Virus record (IMG/VR): IMGVR_UViG_3300014309_000036
Coordinates: 1 to 42,161 of that record
Length of the DNA stretch: 42,161 nucleotides
Reading direction: 5' to 3' (one strand)
Source: a virus
Lineage: Duplodnaviria; Caudoviricetes
The notes beneath the pieces were generated by a model. That model ran no database searches. It had not been told where the DNA came from and was given only the letters and a program-made list of their open reading frames with translations. The stretch's first letter is position 1. Each line of letters begins with the position of its first letter. Made by a program: the position numbers and the translations under genes. Below are positions 2,800 to 39,082 of this stretch, in pieces.

Positions 2800-2804
2800 G
2801 GTGT

Positions 2805-6685: not shown

Positions 6686-6703
6686 CGCTCCCAAGCATAT
6701 CTT

Positions 6704-7048: not shown

Positions 7049-7051
7049 AGC

Positions 7052-7153: not shown

Positions 7154-7181
7154 CGTTTCTCCTCTGTCGTGGTTGCCAGAA

Positions 7182-7232: not shown

Positions 7233-7242
7233 GAGAAGCGGA

Positions 7243-7665: not shown

Positions 7666-7667
7666 AG

Positions 7668-7967
7668 TTACACCTGTCGAGTCGAACAGCGGAAGTATAT
7701 GGTTTCCGTCTTAACTTCCCCGCTGCTCATGGTCGCGGTACACGCAACGGCGTAGCGCGTGCCGTCGACTCCGCCGTTCGAAACGCGCACGATTGCGTCA
7801 GAACCGATGACACCCTGTGGGGTGACCGTCGGGTGCCCGCTTCCGCTCGGGGTTATCGCCCACGCGGCGCTTGAAACCGAAACACCGGACGGGAGCCACC
7901 TTGCGAAATCAACCGCATAATCGGCTATGTCGTTCGGGTAATAGTCGTCAAGAACTCGGCTGCTCAT
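7668..7967 (-). CDS. Putative fibre/tail adaptor protein
   Basis: DYAVDFARWL...VRVSNGGVDGTRYAVACTATMSSG pattern seen in small phage fibre adaptors; directly follows the repeat-fibre gene. Confidence 0.6.
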   Translation of the reverse strand: MSSRVLDDYYPNDIADYAVDFARWLPSGVSVSSAAWAITPSGSGHPTVTPQGVIGSDAIVRVSNGGVDGTRYAVACTATMSSGEVKTETIYFRCSTRQV

Positions 7968-10159: not shown

Positions 10160-10164
10160 TGGGA

Positions 10165-10554
10165 TTACAGCGCTAGTATGCCGCTGGCGTCCCACGTAAT
10201 ATTAGCGTCACCACCATTGAGTGTAATAGGTAGACCAGTGGCGGAATCTATATAGGCGACGAGCCTTGACGTTGATGCTGTGCCAGTGTCGATATAAAGA
10301 ACCAACGCCTCGCACGGGTCGCCCGTCGCTCCGGTGAACGAGATGTCGGCTGCGTCAAAAACGCCGTTAGTGCCAGTCTTGCTGGCGAAATTGGCAGACG
10401 TCTCTTCTCTCGCGCCGGCTGGAATATCGGAAAGGAACTCATGCGCCGCTGAATACGTATAGTCGGCGGTGTCAACGAGAACCGCTTTGATATCGCCAGA
10501 CAGTAGCCCGGCCAATAGAAACTGTTTCCACTTCGGATATATAGTGTTCGCCAT
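10165..10554 (-). CDS. Small virion structural protein (fibre-associated)
   Basis: IKAVLVD...FDAADISF...LVAYID...NGGDANITW pattern typical of small phage tail/fibre proteins. Confidence 0.65.
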   Translation of the reverse strand: MANTIYPKWKQFLLAGLLSGDIKAVLVDTADYTYSAAHEFLSDIPAGAREETSANFASKTGTNGVFDAADISFTGATGDPCEALVLYIDTGTASTSRLVAYIDSATGLPITLNGGDANITWDASGILAL

Positions 10555-10769
10555 TACCTATGTTTCCTCGTGGCGTCGCTTGACGCCTTTGCGGCGAGTC
10601 CAGCTGCGGTTCCACGGGCTCGAAGTAGCGCGGCTTCGCGCGCACGCTCGGCAGCTGCCTCGGCTCTACCTTCATCGATTGCGTTGATGATCGCTTGAAT
10701 CGCTCGCGCTCCAATTCTCAGGATTGCGGGGCATTCCATCAAGAATCGGAGCGCTTGCAAAAAACTCAT
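10554..10769 (-). CDS. Hypothetical protein
   Basis: Overlapping stop/start junctions with both neighbours. Confidence 0.55.
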   Translation of the reverse strand: MSFLQALRFLMECPAILRIGARAIQAIINAIDEGRAEAAAERAREAALLRARGTAAGLAAKASSDATRKHR

Positions 10770-10930
10770 GGTGCGGTGTCTCCCGGGCGCTTCAGAGCAG
10801 CCCAGCCGAATACAGCGGAGCTCATGGAGAAAAGAAGAAGCCGCGCTTCATCATCGAGGAAGAACCCGCCGACCGCAAGCGCGGTCGAGATCACGACTAG
10901 GGCCACTTTTTGGGCGAATGGATTGGTCAT
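10766..10930 (-). CDS. Small two-TM membrane protein, holin candidate (54 aa)
   Basis: Hand translation gives MTNPFAQKVALVVISTALAVGGFFLDDEARLLLFSMSSAVFGWAALKRPGDTAP. It fills the gap and overlaps the next start (ATGA). Confidence 0.55.
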   Translation of the reverse strand: MTNPFAQKVALVVISTALAVGGFFLDDEARLLLFSMSSAVFGWAALKRPGDTAP

Positions 10931-10933
10931 GGA

Positions 10934-11272
10934 TCAACAAGTGTCAGACGAAAGCCAGACGCGCAAGAGGCCCGTCGCGGCCGCCAAGTGGACGATGTGT
11001 GTTCCGGTGGCGATCATCCGCTCCGGCACGTTCGCTTGCAGGTAGCCTGCTCGCGTTGCGCCTGTCGTTGCGGACGCACTCACTGCGTCGCTCGCCCCGC
11101 CGAAAGCGTAGTGAGTCGCCTGGCTCGAAACCACGGTGATGAACTGGCGCTTTGGATCGACTCCAAGCAAGGTCTCGAGACTCGTTGCCGCGCTCGTTGT
11201 TCCGGTTGCCACGACTCCGATTTCGCCAATCTTGGGACCTAATACCTGATCGGATGCTTTATTCCAGCTCAT
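10934..11272 (-). CDS. Hypothetical protein (possible virion component)
   Basis: Coupled to the upstream 981-aa gene; beta-rich. Confidence 0.6.
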   Translation of the reverse strand: MSWNKASDQVLGPKIGEIGVVATGTTSAATSLETLLGVDPKRQFITVVSSQATHYAFGGASDAVSASATTGATRAGYLQANVPERMIATGTHIVHLAAATGLLRVWLSSDTC

Positions 11273-14214
11273 GACATAATCCTTTGGGATAAGGTTTGGG
11301 TGGACTTCGCAGCTTGGCTTTCACGGCTGCTTGTTGGGGCTGGGCGTGCCTGCGCTTGCGCCTGCTCTTGTGCGACCGCCGCCCTTGCGGTGAGGGATTC
11401 CCTGCCGACCGTGGGCTCGATTGCGCCATTTAGCTCGAACGCCAGGTCCAATTCCACGCGCGTCGCCAACGGTGGGGGGATTGGTAGCGCGAGCACTTGC
11501 GTGATTGCTTCCTGCTGCATTCGCTCGAACAGCCTCGGATACACGGCTTTTACCGCTTGTATTGCGTCAGGATTGACGCGCCCTTCCTCCAAGGAATCGA
11601 GAACAGAGAGCGGATTTGCGACGGCTTCCCACTGCGCTTTCCATCGAGAAACCTCGGACGCCGGCGGGGAAACCCCGAGTCTGGATAGCTCCGGATCGGC
11701 TGCTACTGCCGGGAGCGCGGCTCGGAGGAATTGAGCGGCGCCGATTGCCTTGCCGGCGAGGGCCCCGTATGTCTTCGGAGCGCCGTAGGCAAGCTCTTCC
11801 ATGCCGCTTCCAACGCGCTGGGTTATTATGGTTCCTCCTAATGAGGTTATATTGCGAATCTCATCGGAGCGATGGCGGAACGATTCGAGCTCGTCCTTGC
11901 CATCAACGGCGAAGTTGACGATCGCCGGCACGGCCGCGTGCCTCGCTCGTTCTTTCGTTTCTTCGGTGAGCCACGGCGCTCTGACGCGCTTCCTGGAGTC
12001 CTTTTCGAGGCCTGCTCCGGAGCGCGTGCCGCTTGCGCCTTCGGTCAGCGGACGGGCGTTGCGGCGTTTCAGGAAGCGTCCGATTGCGCCGGAAGTCTTC
12101 TGGTCGACGGCCTTAACCATGCCTTGAATTGCCGCGGCCTGTTTGATGGCCATGCCGGGCCTGGTGAGCATCGAGGCAGCTGCCCCAATCATTGCGCCCG
12201 GGATTCCCCCGAGGATGCCGCCCCATGCGGCTCCGCCAATCATCCCGCCCATTCCGCGGCTTTCGCCCTCAATCAGACGATGAATCTGGTTCGAGGCGCG
12301 AACGGTTTCGTCGGCTTTCGCGGCCAATTTGTCGACGGCCTCAATCTGTTTTCTGGCCGTTGCGAGCTGCGGCGCGAATTCATCCGTGCCGGTTGCGATT
12401 GCCTCGATAAGATCTTGCGCCGCGACTATGTGTCTCTTTACGAATTCCTCGTCGAGTTCATTAGTCGCGGTTCCGAGTTTATCAAGGCGTGATAATATCT
12501 TCCCGGGGTCAGCCCTGAACACGGGACGCGAGTAATAGTCTCTATCCTGAACCTTGCGAAGCCACGCTTCCGAGAACACTTTATTGGTGTCCATGTACCG
12601 CTTAAAGGCTTCGTTCTTTTCGCGTTGCCACTTCCCGAGCCTCCCCCATATGCGCTCATTTTCTAGCATGAGCCTTGATGGCTCTTGGACGCTTTCGTAA
12701 TAGTCGGCAAGCTTTTGCGTTCCCAGCTGCCCTCCTCTGTTGCCAGATCGACTCGCTCCCTTTGCTGCCTCAGAAAGCGCGACGTGTTCTTTTTGAAGCG
12801 TCCTTTTCGCCTCGTCAAGCAAATCGAAAGCACCAGCCCCGTCAACTTCATCGAGCTGCGCTATTAGAGTATATATATAATCGGCGGTTTGCTTGCGAGC
12901 GCGGGAGTTCCCTAATAGCTCGTTAGCGGCTTGGTACGCCGCGAGCTCTTCAATCGACGCGTCCTTGGCTGGCGCATATGGGGCAGTGTCGTCTATGACT
13001 CTTTGGATCTTCGCAAACTGGCCGCGAACCTCGGCAAGCTGCAACGCCTCTTGCTCTTTGAGCTTGGCCACCATTGACGGTGTCATCGGGCCATCCGGAA
13101 CTATCATGCGTCTTATGTGCTCGCGGCGTAGCCGGCTATCAACGACCGTCTGAATAACATCGTCGGCTTCGGTCGCCATAGAATCAACGGCCTTGGCTAT
13201 GTCTCTAGCGGCATCGTTGATTATATTGTCGCGGTTCGAATATAAGTCACGGGCCTTCATCGCCGGCTCATCCCACCGTAGCGGGCCAGCTTTTTTGATG
13301 ATGGCCTTGCCCTCAGCATCGGCTCCGGACGCGACCGCTTGCGCCTCCTCAATCATCTCCCGGATGTGTTTTCCGAGGCCTGGCGCTGGCGCGACTCCCT
13401 CGCGCTTGAATACTTCCCCGACGGCTTCATCGATGGACTCAGCAGAGGGCATGGTCTTGGCTGCCGTGCTCGGCGCTACATCATCTGCACGTCCGAAAAC
13501 GCGCTTGAGCTTGCCCATGCCTTTCGTCGCAAAAACAGGCGCAATACCGATGCCTCCCCCGAGCACGGCGCCGAGCCCGACGGAGCCCCACAGCTGCTCG
13601 GCGGTGAGTTCTGAATCTTGGATCCATGCTTCCTCGGCAGCTGCTCCGGTGCCTTGTGCCGCCCCTTCCAGGGCGAATCCAGCGGCCCTGCCAAGCGTAC
13701 GAGAAGCGCCAGCGGCTACCGCACCGCGCGCCGCGCCGATGCCTGCCCCAACGGGCATACCGGAGCCTGCAATCGACCCGGCAACGTACCCAGCGCCGGA
13801 CGCCAGCGGGTTCTCTTCCGCTCGGATGCGCGCCTGCTCGTCATACTCGCGCTCCGCAACCGGACCCTCACCGCCGGCAATCTCGCTCGCGAGGAATCGC
13901 GCTCCAGATAGGGTCGAACGTCCAGTGATGTCGGCGAGTGGATCTGCGTCGATGGCGCCAACGGCCTCGGCTCCCGCCGTCGCCAGCTTCGGAATCGCCA
14001 GCGCCGCGTCGACGGCTCCCGCCCCAACCCCTTCGGCAAGCGCGGCCGCGCCCCCGACGACTCCAGCTTGCTGACGGCGGTTGAAATTGTCGCGGTACTC
14101 CGCTTCACTCGAAGGAAGCATTTCCCCCGAGTCGACGAGCTTTTGCGCATCCTCTGCAGACGTGCGAATCCAGCGTTCGCCGTTGCGGGATTTGAGGTAG
14201 ACCTTGCCAGACAT
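11269..14214 (-). CDS. Large internal virion / DNA ejection protein
   Basis: 981 aa, Ala/Gly-rich and helical with glycine-zipper hydrophobic segments; third of three large genes after the tail genes, as in podoviruses. Confidence 0.6.
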   Translation of the reverse strand: MSGKVYLKSRNGERWIRTSAEDAQKLVDSGEMLPSSEAEYRDNFNRRQQAGVVGGAAALAEGVGAGAVDAALAIPKLATAGAEAVGAIDADPLADITGRSTLSGARFLASEIAGGEGPVAEREYDEQARIRAEENPLASGAGYVAGSIAGSGMPVGAGIGAARGAVAAGASRTLGRAAGFALEGAAQGTGAAAEEAWIQDSELTAEQLWGSVGLGAVLGGGIGIAPVFATKGMGKLKRVFGRADDVAPSTAAKTMPSAESIDEAVGEVFKREGVAPAPGLGKHIREMIEEAQAVASGADAEGKAIIKKAGPLRWDEPAMKARDLYSNRDNIINDAARDIAKAVDSMATEADDVIQTVVDSRLRREHIRRMIVPDGPMTPSMVAKLKEQEALQLAEVRGQFAKIQRVIDDTAPYAPAKDASIEELAAYQAANELLGNSRARKQTADYIYTLIAQLDEVDGAGAFDLLDEAKRTLQKEHVALSEAAKGASRSGNRGGQLGTQKLADYYESVQEPSRLMLENERIWGRLGKWQREKNEAFKRYMDTNKVFSEAWLRKVQDRDYYSRPVFRADPGKILSRLDKLGTATNELDEEFVKRHIVAAQDLIEAIATGTDEFAPQLATARKQIEAVDKLAAKADETVRASNQIHRLIEGESRGMGGMIGGAAWGGILGGIPGAMIGAAASMLTRPGMAIKQAAAIQGMVKAVDQKTSGAIGRFLKRRNARPLTEGASGTRSGAGLEKDSRKRVRAPWLTEETKERARHAAVPAIVNFAVDGKDELESFRHRSDEIRNITSLGGTIITQRVGSGMEELAYGAPKTYGALAGKAIGAAQFLRAALPAVAADPELSRLGVSPPASEVSRWKAQWEAVANPLSVLDSLEEGRVNPDAIQAVKAVYPRLFERMQQEAITQVLALPIPPPLATRVELDLAFELNGAIEPTVGRESLTARAAVAQEQAQAQARPAPTSSRESQAAKSTQTLSQRIMS

Positions 14215-16007
14215 TACGGCAAATCTTCCCGCTCCGAAGGTGTCGGTGCGTTGCGCTCACGATTCACGCGCGCTTGATTGCGCATATACTCTTCCCGTAC
14301 AGCCGGGTCATATGCGGAATCCCATGCTTTCTCTTTCTCTGTAACTCCTGATATCAACCGGCGGAGTCCAGTTAACACGTCACTGTCCCACGACCCAACG
14401 ATCTGCTTAGTGAGCCTAGCTTGTTCTTGCTCAGTGGCTTGTGCTCCAGATATAATCTTGATATAGCTAGAGACCACGGCCCCTATATCGGATCTGGCGT
14501 CCCTTCCCTCTTTCGTTAGCGCCGCATTTGGGGCGTTAGACGTCCAGCCAAGGCCAGCAACACCGTCCCAATCTTTAGGGACAATCAACTCGCCGTTTGG
14601 CGTTATGGTGGCCCCTATTCTTTCGGCAGCAACCTTAAGATTATTCTTGAACGTCGCAACGTCGGCTTTCTTTTCGCCATACGCTTCAAGCTTATCGGGG
14701 TCCGCTCGACTGCCGCCTTCAAGCTCCCGGCGCTTGTTGCGAATTTCCTCGCCACGCAAGCCGAGCTCTTGGGCCTCCAGTTCCTGCTTTCGGATCTTCA
14801 GCTGCTGTTCAACTGGCAGTTCATCGAACGTGACGCTACGCCCTGGCGTGCCCCTCTGTGGTTGCGCGAATTCGTTTTGAAGCTGAATTACCTTCTTGCC
14901 AGTGGCGGCATCCTTGAACTGCCGTTCCCTCTCGATGGCTTCCGCTTGCGACTGGGCGCGCCAAATATCAAACGCGGTGCGCGATTGCTCTGACTTTACG
15001 AATCCTTCCCACGATTCGCGTTCAGCGTCAGCAATCGCCAGCATTGAGTTTCGCAGCAATGACCTTGCACTATCGCGATCGCCAGTTATCTTCTGATACT
15101 CAGCAAGAGCACTGTTCTTATTGTCTTTTGCGATATCAATATCCGCTTCCTGGGCGGCTATGTCATCGTCAACGGCTTTATTGATTATCGCTTGCGCGCT
15201 GTTTTTGCCGCCTGTTAGAGCCGCTGAATATGCCCCTAGACCAGATGCTATAGCTGAAACTATAGTGCCAAATGTCCCTATGCGCTTGAAGTAGCGTCGC
15301 GGGTCAACTTCCTTGGAGTTATAGGCGTCCCGCGCCTTGCCCACTTCTCCCCATTGCTTGTCAGCTGCCGCAATCGCTCGTTGCAATTGCTCGCGCTGTA
15401 GCGCTTCATCCTCCTGCAATTGCGTTGCGCGCTTGCGCGCTTCCTGACTCTGTACTGAGTACATGGCGGCATCGCGCTCGGCTCGCGTTTGCATCGCCTG
15501 GTCAATGGCGAGGTCGGCCTTGGCTCGTTCTGCCGCTGCTTCCGGCGAATATTCTCCCTCGATTGTTTGCGTGGTGACCGAGCCGCGGGGAACCATTACG
15601 CCGCTTTCGCGCTCTGCCATCGGGTCGCGCCCAGGCGTTCCGGGAACCCAATACCGGGGCTCCGGAGGTGGCTCCGGAGGCGTTACCATCGCTTGCGGTG
15701 CGGCAGGCGGTGCGGCGGGCGGCGCTGGCCGTTGGGGGCGCGGCGAGCCGTTGCGAGTCGTCCCGAATTCAGGGGGCGGCGGGGCCTGGACGGGCTGCAC
15801 TGGGCCCGCTGGTGTAGAGATTCCTCCGCCTGGCATGGGAGCCATGGGGACCATTTGAGCGGTCGCCCCCTGATATCTGGTCTCGTCCAAGCGGCGTGCC
15901 AGGTCGTCTGCTTCTGGCCCGAATAGATGGAGGGGAGACCCATCGTCGCGGATGAATTCATATCCACCAATGCCATCGGCTTGATAATCTTTGAATCCGT
16001 AAGCCAT
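14214..16007 (-). CDS. Internal virion / ejection protein
   Basis: 597 aa with a Pro-rich linker, coiled coils and a central hydrophobic helix; gene position. Confidence 0.55.
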   Translation of the reverse strand: MAYGFKDYQADGIGGYEFIRDDGSPLHLFGPEADDLARRLDETRYQGATAQMVPMAPMPGGGISTPAGPVQPVQAPPPPEFGTTRNGSPRPQRPAPPAAPPAAPQAMVTPPEPPPEPRYWVPGTPGRDPMAERESGVMVPRGSVTTQTIEGEYSPEAAAERAKADLAIDQAMQTRAERDAAMYSVQSQEARKRATQLQEDEALQREQLQRAIAAADKQWGEVGKARDAYNSKEVDPRRYFKRIGTFGTIVSAIASGLGAYSAALTGGKNSAQAIINKAVDDDIAAQEADIDIAKDNKNSALAEYQKITGDRDSARSLLRNSMLAIADAERESWEGFVKSEQSRTAFDIWRAQSQAEAIERERQFKDAATGKKVIQLQNEFAQPQRGTPGRSVTFDELPVEQQLKIRKQELEAQELGLRGEEIRNKRRELEGGSRADPDKLEAYGEKKADVATFKNNLKVAAERIGATITPNGELIVPKDWDGVAGLGWTSNAPNAALTKEGRDARSDIGAVVSSYIKIISGAQATEQEQARLTKQIVGSWDSDVLTGLRRLISGVTEKEKAWDSAYDPAVREEYMRNQARVNRERNAPTPSEREDLP

Positions 16008-17830
16008 TATCGTGCCCCATTAGACATAGCAAAAAGCCGCTTCATTCTGTCCTGGGCAGCAACGCCAACGCCAGGAGATGGCACCGTCTGCCCGGCTCCC
16101 CTCGATGCTGCCGCAGCAGCTGTGCCTGATACGGTTCCAGCCGCTGCCCCCTGCTGGGGCATGGTATTGCCGGCTGCACCAGCGGCCGATGCGGCAGCGT
16201 CAGACAGAAGAGCGATGTTAGCGGCATCGCGTTGCGTATCAGCTTGGGTATTGACAGAGCCAGCGCCAATCGCCCAGTTCCCTATATTGGTTTCGTACGC
16301 ACCGCGAGAATTTAAGTCCCCGGCGTTCATACTCCTAACTATATCGCCATAGCCCATGCCCGCCGTATTTGCGGCGTTCATGTGGCTAAGGTTTGATGTT
16401 ATGCCGAATTGGGTAGCGCTGTTGGCGGCATTAAGCGAACCAAGGGCACCCTCTTGCTGCATACCGCGCAAGGCGTTGGCTCTGTCATATTCCGATCCGG
16501 CAATGCCCCTCATGCCCAGCCCATAAGAGTCATTCATGCCCATCTGAGCCTGGGTAGCGCCAATGGCCTGCCCAGCCACGTTTGCGCCTTGCGCGGCGTA
16601 GCCAGCGCCAGCGCCAGCAAGCGAGCCGGCGGCATCTAGTTGGAGTCCTCCGCCGTACTGAGCTCCGGAAAGTGCATTTTGAAGCGCTCCGATGCTCTGT
16701 CCACGAAACGCCAGATTGTTTTCTGCGCCCATGCCGAGCGCTTGAAGCCTCAAATTCTCCTCTGCTTGGCGCCCCGCAAGCGCGCGATCGGCGTTCGCGC
16801 CGAGCACGCCAAGGGCGGCCGCTTCGGTGTTTGCAGCCCCTTGAAGTGCTCCCAACTGCTGCCCGCCGAGCGTCCCTCGCGCCCCCTGGGCAACGCCGAG
16901 CGCGCTCAATTGCTGCTGACGCCAGGCGGCTTCCTCTTGAGCTCGGAGCCCTGCCATTTCGGCGGAAGTCTGTTGTTGAATACCCGCCGCATTCGCCATG
17001 GCTTGGCGAGCCGCGGCACTCGATGCACCGCCCCGCCCGGAGCGGGAGAGCGCCATTTGCCCGGCGATCGCTCGGTCTTGCCCCTGAAGCAATTGCGCCT
17101 CGGCCGCGCTCGGTCCCATCCCGCGCCCAGCGTAGTCTTCGAGGCGAGAGATTCCGCCGTATTGACCGGCAATATCACCTTGCCCCATCGACGACATAAC
17201 ACCAGCGGTGCGCTGCAGTCCAGCGCCACTTACAGCTCCCTGATTGAACGAACCCGGGTCATAGTTTGCGAATGGGTTAGTGTATGACTCGGACCCCATG
17301 CCCGTTAGGCGAGATGTTATATCGCCCATTTGCCGTTGCGGCTGAGTGTCACCGGCAGCAATCGAGCCCATAGTGCCCATTGCGGAGGTCTGAGCGTCGG
17401 TGCCCTGCGGGCCGTACCTCCCGGCGATGTTTTCCAGGGGGCTAGCGATCCCAGCGCCACGGTACTGCACGCCCCCCGCTAGCTCGTTGACGTAACCTGC
17501 CCTAGCGTCTGCCCTGGTTATATCCTCGGCCGCACCACGGTATAGAGCGTCACCAGTGCCAGCGGCAGTTGCGGCCATGGTATTTCCAGCCGCAAGCGCG
17601 CTTTGCCCGGCGGACCGTGCCCCGCTAATGGCGTCAAGCGACCGTTGTCTTGCTAGATCAAGGTCTCCCTGTTGAGCTGGGTTATACGTGAAGTTTTCAA
17701 AGTTTGGGTTATATGGGTTAACATTATCAGCCGAGAATGAATCATCGACGGCGTTAACGCCCCAATTCCAAGCGTCTTCCGCAAGGCCGTATCCGCCCTT
17801 TGCCCAACTAACAGGGTTATACCATGCCAT
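16007..17830 (-). CDS. Internal virion / ejection (pilot-like) protein
   Basis: 607 aa of Gly/Ala/Gln-rich low-complexity sequence; gene position. Confidence 0.55.
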   Translation of the reverse strand: MAWYNPVSWAKGGYGLAEDAWNWGVNAVDDSFSADNVNPYNPNFENFTYNPAQQGDLDLARQRSLDAISGARSAGQSALAAGNTMAATAAGTGDALYRGAAEDITRADARAGYVNELAGGVQYRGAGIASPLENIAGRYGPQGTDAQTSAMGTMGSIAAGDTQPQRQMGDITSRLTGMGSESYTNPFANYDPGSFNQGAVSGAGLQRTAGVMSSMGQGDIAGQYGGISRLEDYAGRGMGPSAAEAQLLQGQDRAIAGQMALSRSGRGGASSAAARQAMANAAGIQQQTSAEMAGLRAQEEAAWRQQQLSALGVAQGARGTLGGQQLGALQGAANTEAAALGVLGANADRALAGRQAEENLRLQALGMGAENNLAFRGQSIGALQNALSGAQYGGGLQLDAAGSLAGAGAGYAAQGANVAGQAIGATQAQMGMNDSYGLGMRGIAGSEYDRANALRGMQQEGALGSLNAANSATQFGITSNLSHMNAANTAGMGYGDIVRSMNAGDLNSRGAYETNIGNWAIGAGSVNTQADTQRDAANIALLSDAAASAAGAAGNTMPQQGAAAGTVSGTAAAAASRGAGQTVPSPGVGVAAQDRMKRLFAMSNGAR

Positions 17831-17831
17831 G

Positions 17832-18443
17832 TTATTCCGTCATCTTTCTAGCGCCGAGGTTGCGGAGCATCATGGATTCGCTGGTGCGGCTCGCGGAATT
17901 CCTGGTCAGGTTGTAGACGAATTCAACGGGTTCCGCCGGTAGCTCGTGCTCAACATAGCCCAATTCCTTGAGCTCTTCCAGGAACAAGACTTCCTCCCCT
18001 CGGCAGGGGGCGAATTCGATGGCTGCTTTCGGAACGCGAAACCCAATGGTTGGGCCGTGGAAGTGCCACGTTCTGCCAATGAAGTAATCGCTGCTTGCGT
18101 CTTCTATGGCGAATTCCCTCTGTCCTATGACGTCAGCACCAAGCGCGAATGCGTCAGCCATACGCCCTATGTACCCGGGACCGTAGTAGTCGTCGTCGTC
18201 CCATATAGCAACAAGATCACCCGGCGATAACGACGCCAAGCCCTCGTTCTTTGCAAACGACTGGTGCGGGGCGCCTCTATACCGAATCACGGTTTCGCTG
18301 TTGCCTGGGGAGCCCCATGAGCATAACGCGGCGCCATTCTCAACTATGATTAGGCGCGCGTCCTTATCGTGCTGGCGAGCCCAATTCTGACGGACGTTAT
18401 CCGCCATGTGTGGGCGCGAGAAAGGTACTATGAGGTTAATCAC
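17832..18443 (-). CDS. GT-A fold (family 2-like) glycosyltransferase
   Basis: INLIVPFSR, RLIIVENG, AKNEGL, VAIWDDDDYYGPGYI (DxD motif) and GEE. Confidence 0.82.
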   Translation of the reverse strand: MINLIVPFSRPHMADNVRQNWARQHDKDARLIIVENGAALCSWGSPGNSETVIRYRGAPHQSFAKNEGLASLSPGDLVAIWDDDDYYGPGYIGRMADAFALGADVIGQREFAIEDASSDYFIGRTWHFHGPTIGFRVPKAAIEFAPCRGEEVLFLEELKELGYVEHELPAEPVEFVYNLTRNSASRTSESMMLRNLGARKMTE

Positions 18444-19750
18444 TCTGGGGTGTCCGCTGCAAAGAACTTGCCCGATATCGTGGCCTTAAGAACTGCCCCC
18501 GGTGGAACATTGTCTATATATATGTCGTTAACACCAGATGAGAATCTTATTTCCGTGGTCTCGAATTCCTCGCCAGCGCCGACTGCTCCCGTGCGCTCTT
18601 GCGTGAAGGTTCCTGTTATTCGCACCGCGCCGTCAGACGCGCTTATACCAAGGACGACGCTAAGAACGGTTTTGAAAGTGACAGGGTAAGCTGTGCCGTT
18701 ATATGGTACATAACCGAATACGGTTATGGTGGCATCAAACGCAGCATTGTGAGAGTTCGCCAGCGCCACTAGCCCGACCAGAACGCTGGCGTTCCATATA
18801 AGGAAGTCCTCGTTCCCTACATCAGATATCGACTTTTCGATGAACGCCGTTCTATGAACATGCCTTGTGGCAAGCGTGTTTTCTGAGGCATTCTCATGCG
18901 TGAGTTCCGTGACATTGCCGAGGGGATCGACGAACCGCAGGCCTTCGGATGAGCGGAACAACACGCCAATCCCAGCGCTGGCTGGCGCTGGCTCCGACAC
19001 GGCACCAAGGAAAAGGCCAGTCCAGCCCTTGCTTGCGCTTCCGCTCGAGACCGAGCCAGCTTGCGGATGATGCGCCGTTGCCGTCACCTGGACGTTGGTG
19101 GAGCCGACCTTGACCGACATTGACGTCCCGGCAAGGATCTCAGTCGGAAGGGCTGCCGCGCCGAAAGTCTGGATGCCGGTATCAGTGATACGAACCATAT
19201 TATGAGTCGTCGTCCCATATTGGGATGCCAAACTCATGCCGTTCATCATCTGATAACCCTGGTTATCGAGCACGCTATTACCAACACGAACGAACCCGTT
19301 TCCGTATTCTATCCTATGCTGGGTCCCACCGGAAGCCGGCGTATGATAATGCCTTGTTACCGACAGGTAATGAGCGCTTTGGAGCGTGGCCCCAACATGA
19401 AACGCGATGGGGCCGCCTCCGACCGGTGACCTTATGATCGTTCCGTTGCCGCCAGCTGCCGCGCTTCCCGGGCTCGCGGCAGGCCCGAACACGGTGTTTC
19501 CGTTTTCGTCGACAAGCTCAATCATTGGCGTGTCGCCAGTGGCGGTTGGCCTTGATATGTCCCCCGTCATGGTCCCGCCGGCAGTCGGAAGGAATGAGTC
19601 ATTATCAAAGTCATTGACGCTTAGCATGGTGTCAATGATATCGTATAATATATCAGACACCTCTGCAGTCGTTATGGATCTGTCCTGCGTTTCATTGCGA
19701 ATATGCAGGTCAATGAGCGCCTTAATTTCGGCTTTGCTTCTAATGGTCAT
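18440..19750 (-). CDS. Tail fibre / receptor-binding protein
   Basis: N-terminal anchor (ITTAEVSDILYDIIDT), the fibre motif FLPTAGGTMTGDI, and a beta-rich body. Confidence 0.65.
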   Translation of the reverse strand: MTIRSKAEIKALIDLHIRNETQDRSITTAEVSDILYDIIDTMLSVNDFDNDSFLPTAGGTMTGDISRPTATGDTPMIELVDENGNTVFGPAASPGSAAAGGNGTIIRSPVGGGPIAFHVGATLQSAHYLSVTRHYHTPASGGTQHRIEYGNGFVRVGNSVLDNQGYQMMNGMSLASQYGTTTHNMVRITDTGIQTFGAAALPTEILAGTSMSVKVGSTNVQVTATAHHPQAGSVSSGSASKGWTGLFLGAVSEPAPASAGIGVLFRSSEGLRFVDPLGNVTELTHENASENTLATRHVHRTAFIEKSISDVGNEDFLIWNASVLVGLVALANSHNAAFDATITVFGYVPYNGTAYPVTFKTVLSVVLGISASDGAVRITGTFTQERTGAVGAGEEFETTEIRFSSGVNDIYIDNVPPGAVLKATISGKFFAADTPE

Positions 19751-22700
19751 GGCCCAAACAGGTCCTCAAACGGGTAATCCCATGGCGTAAAGTCGAGGGA
19801 CCCGTCCGCCCCTGTTCGCCGTCTACCACCGCCAATTGCTTCAACGTCCAGCGCAACGGCGTGGAAGCGCCATTTCCCGCGGCCGTCCGCCGTCATGCGG
19901 AGCAAAAGGGACTCGCGCTTTTGCCGCGGGACTCCCCACTCCCACCGGGCCCACGCTTCCCCGTCGCCAGAGTCGAAACTTGACCCCACAACTCCGCCTA
20001 GAACCTGCTCGGTTGAGTCGTCCTGATCTAGGAGCGTGAGCCTTCCGCGGGTCGATGAAGAGAGCAGGGCGACGATCTTTCGAAGGCGCCCGAAACCGTC
20101 TTGCCCGAATGGGTACATTCGCCCCAGATCTAGCGTTATATCCAGCGGCGCAGCCCAAGCGGGCACGGAAGCCGGCTCAGCCTCGAGGCACAGATACCGA
20201 GCGCCGGAGTGCTCACCAATCCAGGCGAGTGAGTTGGAAACCACGGCAGACCTGCCGGGTGCCTCGATTGTTTCCCGGTGCCAGTTGCCACCGGCAACGT
20301 CATAGACAAGGCGAATGGTTCGCGTTGATATAACGATGCTAATAACGCCGCGCCTGTCGGCCTCTGATATACCGACGACATTGTCAGAGTTCACTAACGA
20401 GAACCATACGGGAGGCCCAAGTGGGCTAACCGTATTCGCCCCTGGTGCTATAACATATAGTTTCTTGTCCGAGCCCTGGAACACAACACCGATCGAAGTG
20501 CTGCCGATTGCCAGCGGCGAAACGGCGCCCGTCGGACCCTGAATATCGAGCGGCCCGAACCACTCGCCGTTCCCGTTGACGTCCGGGCCATTACCGGACA
20601 CTGCCCAAACCCGGGCACTTCCGAACACCAGCCACTGGCTACCGCCCCACGCAACGCCCACCACTTCGCCGGGGAAGCGCATGCGGAGCGCGTCCAAATC
20701 GCTCCAAACCGGTGGTTCGCCGGGAAAGAACTCATGGCTCCAATGAACTTCATTCGGATCTTCGAGGCCTCCGCAAAGCACTCGAGTGGAGCTTGCCGCG
20801 ATGCTTCGGCAGGCCGGGGGCGGGTCGTAGGGAAGCTGTCCGCCAAGGGCTCCGGAGGCGCCTTGCGTGTAGAGTATTGGGCGGCTAATTAACACGCTAT
20901 CTGGCGTCACGTCACGGAATGATACTATGCCGGCGGTACCTATGTCGCGATCGACAGAAGAGCCGCCGTAGTCCTCGCCATAGTCCGACTCTGTGGCGCC
21001 TTCGGTCTCGTATGAGCTTGGCTGTACCTCATAGAACGTGGATCCGCTCCCCTCTGTTCTGTATAGCACGGCCTGAACGCCGCGCATGCCGGTCGGCACT
21101 TGCCTGGCTCTTATATTGATTATAATGCCAACGGTTGATGATATGCCGGTTACAGAGTATGGTTTGCTCGGCGCCGATGAATGCTTAGTCCCAGTCGCGT
21201 CCGTCCACGTCCACACAACGACATATTGAAACTCTCCCTGTATTACGGGGTCTCCGCTTGGCGTTGTTGAGAGTGAATGGCTTATGATTGACGGGGCTCC
21301 GAATGAAAAGCCGAGGTCAAAAACCCGCTCCCCATCGAACGCCGCAAGGTAGCCACCGGCGAACAGCGTGAGCCCTCCCGCTCTTGCTGTCGCGAATGCT
21401 CCGTCGGAGTCGAGCAGCTGGTCCGCTCTGTTCCAGCGGAATAGGTCAACCTGCAACGGGGAGCGCTGGCCCGGGTAGTCTGGTCTGAATATCGGAACAA
21501 GCGCCAGGGCCCTGCCGTTATCGTCTATCGATAGGCTTTGGCCGAACCATGAGGCGCTTATATATTGCGGCTGGTTCGCATCGCCGTCGTTCGGTTGGAA
21601 TACCTCCCCGCTCGCAAATGACGACTCGGCCGACAGTATAAGACCGCCGGTCGGGCTAGTCCTGATTCTAAGGACGTGCCCGCGATCGTATAGCGGAGAG
21701 TTGTAGTTTGATATCACTACAAGCGACTCTGCTCCGGACTGTGATAGGCCAGTGACGGGAACATATTCCCTTAGATCAACGGGAGCCCACTCAACCTGAT
21801 CAGTTGCGGAATATCTGATATAAGACCACTCTATAGCATCAAAACGCACGGCTTGAATCGAGCGCTCCGTAACCAGGTATATTCCATCGTCCTGGTCTAG
21901 CCTTGGCCCTATTACCCCGGGATAAACACCGGCAACGTCGCTCGACTCGGCAACGGTGCTGGCTATAACCGACGGCTCATCAGGTGGCTCGATTGCTATC
22001 GCCACATATGAGTAACGCTTGTCTAGGTCGTCAAGGTACCTTATTACGAGGGCTTCGTTTCCGTCCCTTGTGTTGGCGATGCATGCGTCCCAGCGAGCCC
22101 TATACGAGCCGCCGTTTGCTATGTCAATCGGGTCCGTGTCCAAACCATTCACAACCAATATGCCAACGTTGGGATTAGTGGAACGGCATATCCTTAGGTT
22201 TCCCTGTGGGCGCTCATATACCGCAACCCATCCAAACGAAGTTGCCAGCATGCGCAGTGCGAATGCGTCTGCAAACGGAACTCCATACGCGCTTAGCGTA
22301 TTGGTGAGCATATCAATACGAGCTAGGTTGCTTCCCGCCGTCGCTGGTGTTCCAACGAATAGGTACTGGGTGCCGTCTAGCACGGAAACAGCTTCATATT
22401 CCGTGGTGTAGAAGGGATACACTTGTCTATCCGCAACGAAAACCAGGCCCTCGCCTTTCCGTTCAAACACGCTATATCTTATGGTGTTTCTTATCGCAAC
22501 CGTGTCGAATATAGCTTGGCGATACGCAACGAAAATATGGGTTGCCGTCGATGACACGCCAACCGGGCGCACATTGTTGAAAGCAACATGCGTGCGCCGT
22601 GGCGCCGCAAGCCTCGGGAGGTGACCCATGCGCCGCAACTGGGCTGAGCCCGCCACTTCCTGCCGGTAGAGCGCACCTGGCGCGGCAATTAGCGTGCGCC

Positions 22701-30447: not shown

Positions 30448-31077
30448 TCAGCAGGCGAACCAGCGAGTGGCTTTGCGCTCGCCGACCTTGCGGGCCTTCC
30501 CGGCCTCTTTGAGCGCGTTCAGGCAGTTGGTCAGCCTGAACTCTCCGCCGAATGCCGCGCGAACCTCGGGCTCGCTCAGCCCGTGGGGCTGGGCAGCGCT
30601 CACGAGGGCCGTGTGCACCTTCGCTAGAGTCTCATCGGTGACCGCTTCTGTGGGGCTCGGCTTGTAGCCGATCGCCCCATTCTCCCGGGGTTGCGTAGGC
30701 TTCCGAATCTTCGGCTTCGGGAGGCCATGGGGGCCCATGACGGTAGCGGGCGCAGCCCCTGCCCCATTGAGCGCCGCAATGGCTGAGCGAATCCGCGTAG
30801 CTCGTGCCAAGAGCCCGTCATATTCAGAGAGCTTGACTGATATGCCACGTAACTCATCATTCATGAGCCGCAAATATGAGGGCTCTTCCATGGCTTCGGG
30901 TGAGGGCTCATTTGCTCCGGAGCCTTCCTCGATGACTGCGGCGATATCGCCAGCGGCAGTCGGGGGCGGCTGCACGGGGTTGGTGCCAACTAGCTGTCCT
31001 CGGGCTCCCCTGTCGGGGCGTCCAGTAAGTGGGTGCGTGCGAATGACTCTGGTTTCGTTCATCTCAAATCTCCTCAA
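30448..31077 (-). CDS. Putative DNA-binding protein with coiled coil and C-terminal winged helix
   Basis: GLSEPEVRAAFG...LNALKEAGKARKVGERKATRWFA. The start may be the ATG at 31062. Confidence 0.6.
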   Translation of the reverse strand: MRRFEMNETRVIRTHPLTGRPDRGARGQLVGTNPVQPPPTAAGDIAAVIEEGSGANEPSPEAMEEPSYLRLMNDELRGISVKLSEYDGLLARATRIRSAIAALNGAGAAPATVMGPHGLPKPKIRKPTQPRENGAIGYKPSPTEAVTDETLAKVHTALVSAAQPHGLSEPEVRAAFGGEFRLTNCLNALKEAGKARKVGERKATRWFAC

Positions 31078-31417
31078 TTACGGCCATGATCTCATCATGC
31101 CGCACGATTCGGATCAATCCGTCTTCTACGCCGTGGTTCTGGCGTGGCTTGACGCGGTCCAAAGCATAATCCTGCCCAGCGAGGTGGTCAACCAATACTT
31201 TATCACCGGGAGCGACTTCGTTCGGGACGAGCGGGCCATGCCCGTTTCTGAGCCGATATCCGGGCCCGCTGCGAATCACCGTGGCCATGACCACGTCCTT
31301 TTGGCGTCGCTTGCGTGTGCCTGGGAGGATGACTCCGCGCTGAACTCGCTCCCGCACGGGTTCGAGCATCAGCACAACGTTATCATCCACTGGTCTAATG
31401 CTGTTATAATCTCTCAT
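31064..31417 (-). CDS. groES: GroES-like co-chaperonin (Cpn10)
   Basis: IRPVDDNVVL, GVILP mobile loop, VIRSGPG, EVAPGDKVL, IVRHDEIMAVIE. Confidence 0.85.
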   Translation of the reverse strand: MRDYNSIRPVDDNVVLMLEPVRERVQRGVILPGTRKRRQKDVVMATVIRSGPGYRLRNGHGPLVPNEVAPGDKVLVDHLAGQDYALDRVKPRQNHGVEDGLIRIVRHDEIMAVIEEI

Positions 31418-33559: not shown

Positions 33560-33919
33560 TCAGGCGCGGAGAGCCTCGAGGGCTGCCGCGCGGGGGAGAG
33601 TGCGGCGAACGTGGCGACGAACCCGGGCGAGCACATCAGCGGCCGACTCGGCGCCGGTGTAGGTGCTGACGACCTCTGCCCAGCTTCGTAGGCTCCGATC
33701 CTTGCGGCTCGAATTGCAGCGGTGACAGCATGTCACCAGGTTCTCTGTGCCATTCTGCCCGCCCTTTGCGCATGGGCGGACATGGTCGAGGGTCAGCCGC
33801 TCCCCATCCTCGACAGCTGATTGGCAGTAAATGCAGGCCATTCCGTCGCGCATGTAGATTGCGAGTCGAGTTGACTTGCGAATCCACTTCGAACCCTGAC
33901 CTGCTTTCCGCGTTGCCAT
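33560..33919 (-). CDS. HNH endonuclease
   Basis: IYMRDGMACIYC...LTLDHVRP..KGG....NLVTCCHRCNSSRKD. Confidence 0.92.
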   Translation of the reverse strand: MATRKAGQGSKWIRKSTRLAIYMRDGMACIYCQSAVEDGERLTLDHVRPCAKGGQNGTENLVTCCHRCNSSRKDRSLRSWAEVVSTYTGAESAADVLARVRRHVRRTLPRAAALEALRA

Positions 33920-33925: not shown

Positions 33926-33954
33926 TTTATACTCTGACCCGTCAGAGTATGCAA
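33926..33954 (-). promoter_or_regulatory. Sigma70-like promoter with palindromic operator (P1)
   Basis: TTGCAT-17-TATAAA; perfect inverted repeat ATACTCTGAC-N2-GTCAGAGTAT at 33929-33950. Confidence 0.75.
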
Positions 33955-33955
33955 T

Positions 33956-33995
33956 AAAAAAGAGCCGGGCCCGGTTAATAGTTCCGAGCCCGGCC
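33956..33995 (-). terminator. Rho-independent terminator
   Basis: GGCCGGGCTCGG-9 nt-CCGGGCCCGGCT followed by CTTTTTT. Confidence 0.75.
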
Positions 33996-34028
33996 GTAAA
34001 CGATTGATATCGTTTGCGTGTTATGGAC

Positions 34029-34063
34029 GCTTCAATGGGGCCCCTCCAGTGGGAGGGGAAGTG
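34029..34063 (-). CRISPR. Solitary CRISPR-like repeat (type I-G/I-U-like); not an array
   Basis: CACTTCCCCTCC-CACT-GGAGGGG-CCCCATTGAAGC has a 7-bp stem and a 12-nt 3' tail ending ATTGAAGC. Only one copy was seen. Confidence 0.65.
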
Positions 34064-34258
34064 TCAGCGGTTCTCTGGGGTCCAGTCGACGACTCCGGAC
34101 CCGCCGCATGCGCTACATTCAATTTCGAAATAAAGATCCGCCTCATCACCGGAGCCGTCTAAACGCATGATACGAAACCCGAGCCCGTCACACTCGTGGC
34201 AGCCGAAGGGCTCGCGCGGCTCGCTCTGCGAAAGAATCGGCAGGTGCATATCCATCAC
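34064..34258 (-). CDS. Small zinc-finger protein (two CxxCxGxG motifs)
   Basis: CHECDGLG ... CSACGGSG. Confidence 0.7.
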   Translation of the reverse strand: MMDMHLPILSQSEPREPFGCHECDGLGFRIMRLDGSGDEADLYFEIECSACGGSGVVDWTPENR

Positions 34259-34668
34259 CCCTGCGGCTCCGGGATGATGACGCTACCGGGTCGCGAGTGG
34301 GCGCGCGCGATCGTGGCTTCACGCTCGGCCAGGCGCGCCGCACGGTCGAGGATGATGTCGCTGACCACCGCGTTCCCTGCCGCGTGCCAATTTCTGGCAT
34401 CGGCCTCGGCCGCCTCCAGCGTCGGGGCGCGAAAGATCTCAGACCGCATCCGGCGGCCGTCAAATCTCGACCCCCATTCCGGATGCAGCTGCTCCCCGCA
34501 ACACATCCTGGACGCTGATCTGTACTGATCCAGTAGCAGTCCATGCCCGTTGATCGGGAGGCTGACGGTGGCAGATACTCCGGGCCAGTCCCTTTCCTCT
34601 GGCCAAACGCTACCATCGGTCGGTGGATCTTGTGGCGGTATGTACGTTATTGAGTCGAGCTTCAGCAT
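34255..34668 (-). CDS. Hypothetical protein
   Basis: GAGGAG RBS before MLKLDS. Confidence 0.65.
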   Translation of the reverse strand: MLKLDSITYIPPQDPPTDGSVWPEERDWPGVSATVSLPINGHGLLLDQYRSASRMCCGEQLHPEWGSRFDGRRMRSEIFRAPTLEAAEADARNWHAAGNAVVSDIILDRAARLAEREATIARAHSRPGSVIIPEPQG

Positions 34669-34700
34669 TTTCTGTCTCCTCATGGGCTCCGGAGCGGAGC

Positions 34701-34750
34701 CCTCTAACGCCGCGAGCCCCGCGGCTCGAAAGCGGCGGGGCGGGAGGGCT
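34701..34750 (-). repeat. Intergenic hairpin repeat, copy A
   Basis: AGCCCTCCC GCCCCGC C GCT TTCG AGC C GCGGGGC TCGCGGC GTTAGAGG. Confidence 0.9.
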
Positions 34751-34980: not shown

Positions 34981-35032
34981 ACCATGGCTCCGGGCTGTCA
35001 GAGAGTCAATACCGAATATGCTTTTTATAAAC
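34981..35032 (-). promoter_or_regulatory. Sigma70-like promoter P3 with operator half-site and AT-rich upstream element
   Basis: TTGACT-17-CATGGT, with CTCTGAC next to the -35; upstream GTTTATAAAAAGC is nearly identical to the element at P2. Confidence 0.6.
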
Positions 35033-35039: not shown

Positions 35040-35474
35040 TCATGGCCTGCGGCCGCGCCTCATTCTGCGCATTTCATCATCCCACCGGGCCCGTTTCTCC
35101 CTGGCCTCTCTCTCCTCTGGCGTCTCCGGCGGGTCGGGCTCCCTCACCCAATATCTCCATGATCGTGTCAACTCCGTCCATGCCGGGTCATTGAAGAAAT
35201 GCCACAGGGCATCGTCTCCAATTGGGAGCGCGTACGAATATCCACATATTACTATCTTACGCCCTAGGCTTACCCCCTTGACGCTGAATTCATCTCCCAG
35301 ATCTGGGCCGGAGTTGGCAATAGTGGCGAGAGAAACAAGCCAGATCTTGTGGTCTGCATATATAGCAACCGGGCACATGATCGATATGGTGCGATCCGTT
35401 AAGTCGTCTTTCTCTATAATGCCAATAATAACCTCGTCAGTGTTGCGGGCCACCATAAAGGTGCTCTCACTCAT
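35040..35474 (-). CDS. Hypothetical protein
   Basis: ATGA overlap with the upstream stop; start MSESTF. Confidence 0.6.
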   Translation of the reverse strand: MSESTFMVARNTDEVIIGIIEKDDLTDRTISIMCPVAIYADHKIWLVSLATIANSGPDLGDEFSVKGVSLGRKIVICGYSYALPIGDDALWHFFNDPAWTELTRSWRYWVREPDPPETPEEREAREKRARWDDEMRRMRRGRRP

Positions 35475-35689
35475 GTCCGTTTCCCTTTCATACGCCACCC
35501 GCTGGCGCATGCGTCAAGCGCCATATGACGCAGCCAAGTAGCGAGTCCGGGTGAGCCTCCCTCCCCAGTGTATCCAGCGCGGTCAGCGGCACGCCTCAAA
35601 ATGCCGTGGTCGTCCGCTGAAAGGCGGACGGTGAATTTAACCGAGCCGGGCCCGGATAGCTCACCTGAATGATCGGTGCGTCTTGCCAT
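35471..35689 (-). CDS. Ribbon-helix-helix-like DNA-binding protein
   Basis: KFTVRLSADDHGILRRAADRAG...LATWLRHMAL. Confidence 0.65.
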   Translation of the reverse strand: MARRTDHSGELSGPGSVKFTVRLSADDHGILRRAADRAGYTGEGGSPGLATWLRHMALDACASGWRMKGKRT

Positions 35690-36950: not shown

Positions 36951-36960
36951 CTTTATGCCA

Positions 36961-37012
36961 CCTTTCACGGCCCCAAGCCCCGCGGCTTGGTAGCGGCGGG
37001 GCGGAAGGGGTC
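36961..37012 (-). repeat. Intergenic hairpin repeat, copy B
   Basis: GACCCCTTCC GCCCCGC C GCT ACCA AGC C GCGGGGC TTGGGGC CGTGAAAGG. Confidence 0.9.
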
Positions 37013-37481
37013 AGCAGTCAATCCCGTAACGATCCATAATAGCGCGAGCCGCAGTCACGTGACTGCGCTTGCGTAGATATGCTGTGACGTAATCGGGGAG
37101 ACCCCGTTGCAGGCGCGACAAATCAGCCTGCGCGGCCGCAAGCTCATCCTCCGCGACCTGCACCGCAGCAGCATGTGCCGCGGCAATCGCGCATAGGTGA
37201 CAGCCGCAAATGAACGGAGCCATAGTCAGGTGTGCTAGTTCTCCCGCAGCCCGCACGTCGGGGTCATGCGAGAAACGGTCCGCCTCGGCTGCGATAGCAG
37301 AATCGATATAGTACGCTTCGCCGCTCGATAACACAGTGCCCGACTGACACTGCCTTACCCCAGGGATAGTGGATACCATAGGCCTAGCGTCCCGCGCAGC
37401 ACGTGCTGCCTGAGCCGCTGCCTGAGCCACGTCTACACGAGATTCAGCGTCGCTAATGGCATTGTTTATAATGTGTGTCAT
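37011..37481 (-). CDS. Hypothetical Ala-rich protein
   Basis: Exactly fills the interval between repeat copies C and B. Confidence 0.65.
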   Translation of the reverse strand: MTHIINNAISDAESRVDVAQAAAQAARAARDARPMVSTIPGVRQCQSGTVLSSGEAYYIDSAIAAEADRFSHDPDVRAAGELAHLTMAPFICGCHLCAIAAAHAAAVQVAEDELAAAQADLSRLQRGLPDYVTAYLRKRSHVTAARAIMDRYGIDC

Positions 37482-37530
37482 TTCAACGACCCAAGCCCCG
37501 CGGTCCGAAGACGGCGGGGCGTGAGGGGTC
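37479..37530 (-). repeat. Intergenic hairpin repeat, copy C
   Basis: GACCCCTCAC GCCCCGC C GTC TTCG GAC C GCGGGGC TTGGGTC GTTGAAATG. Confidence 0.9.
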
Positions 37531-38087: not shown

Positions 38088-38096
38088 TCTGTGTTA

Positions 38097-38150
38097 CCTC
38101 TCAACGCCCCGAGCCCCTCGGCTCGAAAGCGGAGGGGCGGAAGGGGGGCT
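38097..38150 (-). repeat. Intergenic hairpin repeat, copy D
   Basis: GCCCCCCTTCC GCCCCTC C GCT TTCG AGC C GAGGGGC TCGGGGC GTTGAGAGG. Confidence 0.9.
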
Positions 38151-38334: not shown

Positions 38335-38344
38335 GCGATGCCTA

Positions 38345-38396
38345 CCTTTCAACGCCGCGAGCCCCGCGGCTCGAAAGCGGCGGGGCGGAAGGGGTC
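38345..38396 (-). repeat. Intergenic hairpin repeat, copy E
   Basis: GACCCCTTCC GCCCCGC C GCT TTCG AGC C GCGGGGC TCGCGGC GTTGAAAGG. Confidence 0.9.
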
Positions 38397-39017: not shown

Positions 39018-39082
39018 TTTATGGCACTGACCCGTCAGAGCGTCAATCGATATTCGTATCCGCTATGCGCTTTTTTATAAAC
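39018..39082 (-). promoter_or_regulatory. Sigma70-like promoter P2 with palindromic operator
   Basis: TTGACG-17-CATAAA. 39027-39040 (ctgacccgtcagag) is identical to 33934-33947; AT-rich element at 39069-39082. Confidence 0.75.

Follow-up and report, generated by a model that had tools for sequence, protein, structure and literature searches.

What does a single CRISPR repeat do behind the last of a row of small phage genes? The question was raised by a stretch of DNA of 42,161 nt (the whole stretch analysed, hereafter the window). There the original prediction, made from the sequence alone, had described a solitary type I-G-like repeat, a 33-nt pseudo-spacer and a terminator on the minus strand directly after a gene stop, and had proposed that they form a crRNA mimic. 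The source record is a complete 42,161-bp tailed phage with direct terminal repeats. Comparison of 49 ORFs with PHROGs identified terminase, portal, capsid, GroES, primase, helicase, Sak4, SSB and a Cas4-domain exonuclease. Neither integrase nor cas effector genes were found among these ORFs by the PHROGs scan, in agreement with the lack of a cas operon noted originally. The sole Cas-like PHROGs match is the Cas4-domain exonuclease, which adjoins Sak4 and SSB.

Layout and type I-G identity of the solitary repeat

All parts of the element were found where they had been described: on the minus strand, a stop codon, the repeat, 33 nt, a 12-bp hairpin, six T and the promoter-like site of an HNH gene follow one another (Table 1). 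The stop codon is that of a 64-aa ORF (34064-34066) and abuts the repeat, and the HNH promoter-like site forms the other boundary of the element. The terminator hairpin (33963-33995, with two G-U pairs among its 12 bp, and six T at 33956-33961) is one of two strong hairpin-plus-T sites that a script scan of the window found on the minus strand. The RNA predicted to lie downstream of the Csb2 cut has 81 nt. Two features had not been mentioned in the original prediction: the stem-loop of the repeat is 2 nt shorter than in typical type I-G arrays, and the pseudo-spacer contains a 7-bp hairpin.

Table 1. Coordinates, in the window, of the element and of features of the adjoining small-gene cluster
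Feature	Coordinates	Strand	Remarks
Solitary type I-G repeat mimic	34029..34063	minus	7-bp stem, 4-nt loop, 12-nt tail
Repeat stem arms	34052-34058 / 34041-34047	minus	7 bp
Repeat tail	34029-34040	minus	12 nt
Predicted 8-nt 5' handle	34029..34036	minus	shared with most of the fetched I-G arrays
Predicted Csb2 cut	between 34037 and 34036	minus	placed according to the available part of 10.1101/2022.08.08.503147
Pseudo-spacer	33996..34028	minus	33 nt
Inner pseudo-spacer hairpin	33998-34015 (positions 14-31)	minus	perfect 7-bp stem
Predicted intrinsic terminator	33956..33995	minus	12-bp stem, 9-nt loop, T6
64-aa ORF	34064..34258	minus	two CxxC motifs; weak DnaJ zinc-finger-like match, below cut-off
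137-142-aa ORF	34255..34683	minus	overlaps next gene
Promoter-like site with palindromic operator-like spacer	33926..33954	minus	starts directly after the T run; leads to the HNH gene (33560-33919)
Promoter-like site nearest upstream of the repeat	34981..35009	minus	weak -10; not reported by the consensus scanner
Promoter-like site at the head of the ~14 small genes	39018..39046	minus	contains a 14-bp motif also at 33934-33947
52-nt hairpin copies	34698-34749, 36959-37010, 37477-37528, 38095-38146, 38343-38394	minus	between stop codons and ribosome-binding sites

The repeat is indeed solitary. It is single-copy in the phage genome when up to 3 mismatches are allowed, and a covariance model found no second repeat near the site at E up to 10, so that the element is not a two-repeat mini-array. 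The terminator was likewise considered as a decayed second repeat and rejected, having no match to this model at E up to 10. The element is thus intergenic, carried by a mobile element and free of a second repeat within 100 bp, as are Racrs and other SRUs, and it joins a viral repeat-like sequence to a spacer-like sequence and a terminator, a layout (terminator or second repeat) that characterizes Cracrs. Chance and assembly artefact are ruled out by the model score, by simulated genomes (the 14-nt tail occurred once in 400 of them) and by a Logan contig from a public run, possibly the source sample, that covers the site with 0 differences.

The covariance model was built from 49 real array repeats, the phage repeat being left out; 39 came from loci found through cas7g and 10 from loci found with patterns of the phage repeat, which introduces a mild circularity. 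It scored the phage repeat at 32.7 bits (E 3.8e-7, roughly calibrated), the sole match in the window, the next candidate reaching 12.5 bits. Held-out true array repeats (locus L282) scored 34.3 bits. The presumed similarity to known CRISPR repeats is therefore real. Furthermore, the repeat has the 7-8-bp stem and the 12-nt tail ending in an 8-nt handle that are typical of type I-G. Its tail and stem base are the same as in real arrays; the stem interior differs yet pairs fully.

Scanning 185,579 species genomes for the stem base and tail yielded 29 loci, many of them arrays with 71-77-nt periods. Typing of 13 loci (49 ORFs, NCBIfam) revealed I-G effector genes at five, cas4g-cas1g only at one, III-B genes at two and, among the ORFs typed, no cas gene at five. 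Hence, arrays with this tail adjoin csb1, csb2 and cas3g (cas8g), and the repeat family is also used at some III-B loci. Of 401 genomes from the phylum to which the Polyangiaceae genome G001 belongs, 79 carry cas7g, and arrays at these loci share the tail. The stem and tail match, the I-G genes at array loci and the model score all bear out the original type I-G assignment. The accompanying hope that a repeat match would reveal the host was disappointed: no array with the exact stem of the phage repeat was found in IMG/VR or in the 185,579 species genomes. The closest repeat flanks are those of a Polyangiaceae array (L037), which does not amount to a host assignment.

In the available part of 10.1101/2022.08.08.503147, Csb2 is described as cutting 4 nt below a 7-bp stem and leaving an 8-nt handle, a description from which the handle predicted here follows. 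The same source states that Csb2 remains on the cleaved hairpin (KD 43 nM), that it binds the repeat hairpin and not the handle, and that the type I-G PAM is TTN. In a Bifidobacterium preprint, available in part, the repeat is said to be cleaved by Csb2 in its 5' region. Judged by its stem and tail, the phage repeat is predicted to be a good Csb2 substrate.

Pseudo-spacer, targets and host

The pseudo-spacer is unusual among 1616 natural spacers (some arrays counted twice), only eight of which have 33 nt or less. Its G+C content (39% vs a natural mean of 62%) is matched or undercut by 3.6% of 1540 natural spacers; intergenic DNA, too, is often low in G+C. A perfect 7-bp inner stem is also present in 36 of the 1540, and the fold energy is unremarkable, since 15 of 68 G+C-matched natural spacers fold as well or better. 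In the predicted mature RNA, the end of the handle also pairs with the seed. Shortness, A+T-richness and fold fit a guide that binds without cutting, or plain intergenic DNA, more than a captured spacer; this is weak evidence.

As noted originally, the phage genome itself holds no target: there is no match to the 5' seed of at least 8 nt, and the best overall match does not exceed 19/33. The original prediction had also suggested host cas promoters and other phages as places where a PAM-flanked match might be found, and none was recovered. In IMG/VR, 11 matches to a 19-nt wobble pattern were obtained, the best at 23/33 and none with a TTN PAM, exact-pattern scans of this kind being prone to miss diverged targets. 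In metagenomes, the first 22 nt were found only in the phage's own contig. Across 98 CRISPR loci (1.5 Mb), PAM-plus-8 matches numbered 4 vs 3.8 expected, and there was none with the PAM plus at least 9 nt. PAM-plus-13 seeds occurred in 19 of 301, 15 of 301 and 27 of 351 genomes, near the control level (about 21, 28 and 17 control matches), and tblastn, which detected its positive control, placed a cas gene within about 1.5 kb of none of the 67 seed loci. One PAM-plus-12 match, in intergenic DNA of L018, was attributed to chance; it is flanked by an integrase and a tRNA-like sequence and does not adjoin cas genes. The genomes covered by these approximately 950-960 genome searches were chosen without knowledge of the host, which is probably absent from the sample; the blank is therefore weak.

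The same applies to the pairing that defines Cracrs. At least nine PAM-proximal bases shared with a host CreR or CreA spacer, or with a cas or creT promoter, were found in no case among the 98 loci and the 67 seed loci, a sample that probably lacks the real host. Moreover, the pseudo-spacer resembles none of the host CreR-like spacers that we found.

Searches for the host itself were equally blank. No terminase relative above approximately 26% identity was found among isolated phages, and the nearest terminase in a large protein collection is 57% identical. Single-sequence searches gave no close relative of the terminase, and primase relatives of 33-35% identity only; no host was indicated by cluster names or by the Atlas. 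Conversely, none of the 1616 natural spacers matches the phage over its full length (best 24/34 and 26/37). Positions 1-20000 of the window gave six weak matches, in repetitive stretches, against 201 genomes of the class of G006. At 3818-3837, the window is identical over 20 consecutive bases to part of a spacer from a Dehalococcoidia array, but the remaining 16 bases differ; 15 of the 20 bases also occur in another spacer of this array. This is not a host call.

Type I-G elements in hosts and in other viruses

Host type I-G loci appear to contain CreR/CreA-like circuits. Among 14 isolated repeat-like candidates picked from 116 host loci, two match a promoter-like site in their own locus; for the remaining 12, there is no such promoter match. 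At L279 (15383-15590; G173:C22), a degenerate solitary repeat is followed by 16 nt that match a TTC-flanked site running up to the -35 box; a small ORF and cas3g-cas8g-cas7g lie downstream of it. This element is a candidate type I-G CreR. At L028 (9622-10070), in the Mycobacteriaceae MAG G1010, a solitary I-G repeat is followed by 14 nt that match a TTG-flanked site. This site overlaps a -10 box and is followed by a strong ribosome-binding site and a mini-ORF of nine codons, rich in arginine. We view this as a candidate type I-G CreTA-like module; G1010 carries cas7g on another contig. In both cases, mismatches occur at positions 6 and 12 only, and shuffled spacers gave such a match in 0 of 3000 trials each. 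CreT has arginine codons. The likening of the mini-ORF to CreT draws on these and on a published account in which CreT is an RNA that sequesters tRNA and bears a Shine-Dalgarno element (10.1101/2023.03.10.532045, available part). The same text mentions creA-like elements for I-U (= I-G). Two other host I-G loci carry degenerate two-repeat mini-arrays (L282:4749-4846 and L036:10850-10950), located upstream of cas3g in one case and downstream of the array in the other; neither has a PAM-flanked target in the stretch fetched.

Type I-G repeats are also found in other viruses: a scan returned at least 119 loci of an estimated 250, with a stem of at least 6 bp in 30 of the matches listed. From the matches listed, 36 loci (picked by stem, four of them by eye) were submitted to the covariance model. 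They comprise 7 arrays of three or more repeats, 14 two-repeat mini-arrays, ten of which form one related group, and 15 single repeats. Besides the phage studied here, a terminator at spacer distance follows one of these 15 single repeats. It belongs to an unrelated provirus (L105:1128-1238, minus strand), in which an I-G repeat, 37 nt and a strong terminator lie antisense between small genes of the provirus fragment. Neither a host nor a target was found for L105, and it has no match in plasmids. Hence, among the matches listed, the repeat-spacer-terminator layout recurs in a minority of viral I-G repeats. When 29 repeat-flanking segments from the viral matches listed were compared with 117 host loci, no promoter target was found beside cas genes; the seven 11-nt seed matches are scattered, five of them within long ORFs. 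In addition, 90 loci (1.01 Mb) of phages sharing the terminase, primase or intergenic hairpin contain no repeat above 16.6 bits; these are distant relatives (terminase 35-49% identical), and many of the loci end before the matching region. Among the matches listed, the related small viral contigs L077, L079, L102, L110, L113, L114, L115, L129, L130 and L135 carry a two-repeat I-G mini-array inside a short inverted repeat. This ten-contig group has four different spacers, some with 7-bp hairpins by eye.

How does the phage element compare with known RNA anti-CRISPRs? In the available part of the Cracr paper, Cracrs are guide RNAs of phages that shut down host promoters of cas or creT and also compete for Cas proteins. 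Their spacers are shorter than host spacers, and they are defined by at least nine PAM-proximal matches. CracrVA1 and its cognate host CreR each consist of one repeat, one spacer and a rho-independent terminator. The host effector matures CracrVA1, which competes with crRNAs and represses the cas promoter by partial pairing; after mutation of its spacer, it competed weakly and lost its anti-CRISPR effect. The phage element shares with CracrVA1 its viral origin, the absence of cas genes, the single repeat, the short spacer-like segment, the rho-independent terminator and the predicted processing by a host enzyme. It differs in being of type I-G (the subtypes given for Cracrs are V-A, I-F, I-E, I-C and I-B, and the term I-G does not occur in the available text), in having no evident promoter of its own, in its place at the end of a gene cluster, and in that no matching host CreR/CreA or promoter target was found. 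Since the defining seed match was not found, membership in the Cracr family is not established.

Like Racrs and other SRUs, it is a solitary intergenic repeat mimic of a phage, and it directly follows a small gene. RacrIC1 occupies a similar place, 11 nt after acrIC5 on a bicistronic RNA (PMC10651486, available part). According to the same source, the inhibitory product of RacrIF1 is an RNA of approximately 70-76 nt upstream of the cut, a region that is coding in the phage element. The crRNA-like shape originally proposed is real; the Cracr class, with its single repeat, spacer and terminator, is a nearer precedent for it than RacrIF1. The available part of PMC10651486 catalogues 25 I-G SRU rows as untested Racr candidates, the tested Racrs being of types I-C, I-E, I-F and V-A; the sequence of the phage element is not among these rows. 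A 90%-identity search (the SRUFinder rule) could miss the phage repeat, whose closest counterpart in the fetched arrays has a different stem interior.

The element also resembles host CreR/CreA in combining a degenerate repeat with a partial-match guide (10.1101/2023.03.10.532045, available part), except that it is phage-borne, lies outside a cas locus and has no sequence link to a host element that we could find. With viral mini-CRISPR arrays (PMC6858448; 10.1101/2023.03.03.530964; available parts), it shares a virus-borne repeat, one spacer-length segment and the lack of cas genes; unlike them, it has no second repeat, its segment is short and folded, and no protospacer was found. By analogy, the phage element would work like a Cracr or a Racr.

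Possible roles of the element

The likeliest explanation, which we put forward tentatively, is that the phage carries a Cracr-type RNA anti-CRISPR directed against type I-G. An anti-CRISPR role as such, through the competition step that a Cracr and a decoy have in common, is probable. The repeat, lying at the 3' end of the mRNA, would be a substrate of host Csb2, whose cut at the site known from the literature would release an 81-nt RNA made of the 8-nt handle, the 33-nt guide and the terminator hairpin. This RNA would compete with host crRNAs for Cas7g and Cas8g, and the first 13 or so guide bases would steer the complex to a putative host promoter, of cas or creT, where it would bind and not cut. 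The TTN PAM and the twofold action of Cracrs are likewise taken from the literature. The observed I-G identity of the repeat, its single copy and the repeat-spacer-terminator layout are consistent with this role, as are a tail and stem base identical to those of real arrays and the I-G effector genes at 5 of the 13 typed loci. CracrVA1 and CreR have the same layout, and 33 nt is short, as Cracr spacers are, which by analogy points in the same direction. So do the host regulatory circuits that appear to exist at L279 and L028, the promoter-like A+T-richness of the segment, a folded distal half that would cap pairing near the seed length of these two elements, and the unrelated provirus L105 with its similar arrangement. 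Against a Cracr count the missing target and a guide unlike the host CreR-like spacers found; the inner hairpin is weak evidence in its favour. In addition, the cluster has to be terminated ahead of the HNH promoter in any case, so that the 33-nt gap may be incidental, and among the matches listed only 1 of 15 other single-repeat viral loci has a terminator at spacer distance. Because Csb2 binds the repeat hairpin and not the handle, the terminator-ended product may not recruit it. The position of the Bifidobacterium Csb2 cut, as given in the available part of that preprint, also speaks against the proposed processing.

A pure decoy of the Racr kind is a possibility that we rate as less probable than a Cracr and somewhat doubtful. 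Csb2, which holds the cleaved hairpin, would be caught on the repeat at the 3' end of the mRNA, and the products would soak up Cas7g; the 33 nt would have no target and the terminator would merely end the operon. Trapping needs no target, in line with the failure to find one, the inner hairpin would be irrelevant, and both the similar placement of RacrIC1 and the catalogued I-G SRU rows offer precedents (available parts of the sources cited above). However, the RNA through which RacrIF1 acts lies upstream of the cut, a stretch that would be translated in this phage. Furthermore, the search for anti-CRISPR genes next to the repeat was negative, and the spacer-mutated CracrVA1 lost its effect. 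An anti-rival guide is unlikely: a mini-array whose second repeat has been replaced by a terminator would borrow host Cascade-Cas3 against another phage or a plasmid. [quoted passage not shown] Yet no protospacer emerged from IMG/VR (11 matches at no more than 23/33, without a TTN PAM) or from metagenomes (the phage's own contig only), and in both length and G+C content the segment lies below nearly all natural spacers; half of it is folded.

The repeat could also be a functionless scar, gained by recombination with a host array or left by a decayed mini-array. Sak4, SSB and the Cas4-like exonuclease would provide a recombination route, the repeat matches no known array exactly, and the 90 related-phage loci lack the element, although they are distant and many stop short of the region. 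We nevertheless consider a scar quite improbable: tail and stem base are intact, the divergent stem interior is fully paired, the repeat fits exactly between stop codon and terminator with no gene broken, and read-through of the stop yields no recognisable extension. Least probable is an mRNA-processing switch, in which the Csb2 cut would remove the terminator, cap the mRNA with Csb2 and alter the stability of upstream genes in I-G cells only. The lack of an evident promoter of its own and the position of the repeat, abutting the last stop and upstream of the only strong terminator of the cluster, would suit such a switch; against it, the upstream genes have no known anti-defence function. We know of no precedent for it.

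As a solitary I-G repeat, the element joins the SRU rows already catalogued in the available part of PMC10651486, and if only the decoy explanation holds, it is one further member of them. A Cracr-shaped I-G unit cut from an mRNA end was not found in print; Tables S1-S3 of the Cracr paper and Figure S7 on CreR may list I-U/I-G elements. Our search found no literature linking type I-G with anti-CRISPR and Racr. The element would extend the published Cracr/Racr principle to a new subtype, the principle itself not being new. In its fullest form, the proposal is a long shot: the first RNA anti-CRISPR against type I-G set in an mRNA 3' end, in which one Csb2 cut would trap Csb2, alter the fate of the mRNA in I-G-positive cells only and free a half-folded guide silencing an I-G cas or CreT-toxin promoter. 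If a Cracr-type element with a creT promoter as target were confirmed, the candidate type I-G CreTA layer seen at L028 would already be countered by phages. To our knowledge, type I-G is the least studied type I system, and it is under development for genome engineering; the element would give a compact off-switch for it. At about 110 nt, the element is testable in the reconstituted Thioalkalivibrio system, where one can ask whether I-G Cascade loads a guide that lacks a 3' repeat hairpin.

Other features of the small-gene cluster

The element ends a cluster of approximately 14 small same-strand genes between the primase and HNH genes, nearly all without a family. The label 'early' for this cluster is suggested by its gene content and promoter-like motifs. 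No homologue of the 64-aa ORF was found outside its own cluster, no family or fold could be assigned to the 137-142-aa ORF, and none of the genes neighbouring the repeat was recognised as an anti-CRISPR. The sites at 33926-33954 and 39018-39046 have an identical 14-bp near-palindrome between their -35 and -10 boxes. The site at 34981-35009, a possible source of the repeat-bearing transcript, has only the start of this motif of the two stronger sites. The 72-aa product of one cluster gene (35471-35689) has a ribbon-helix-helix look by eye, with no Pfam match, and could be a repressor of the promoters that share the near-palindrome. Aca proteins repress acr operons.

Upstream of the terminase, a GroES co-chaperonin gene (31064-31417) is present, as in 22 of the 90 related-phage loci. 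The small-gene cluster also contains five copies, all on the minus strand, of a G+C-rich 52-nt hairpin with a constant C-C mismatch. These hairpins were considered as CRISPR repeats and rejected, since they score 8-12 bits through the stem only and have no I-G tail. They have no Rfam match either, the whole window yielding none. The motif lies before genes in six other phages (L043-L048), found with a pattern made from the motif itself, and shows compensatory change in 3 of 10 pairs. Moreover, in a low-depth contig of the public run mentioned above, such a hairpin is found next to a variant gene start. The hairpins may be RNA processing sites or cassette-exchange sites.
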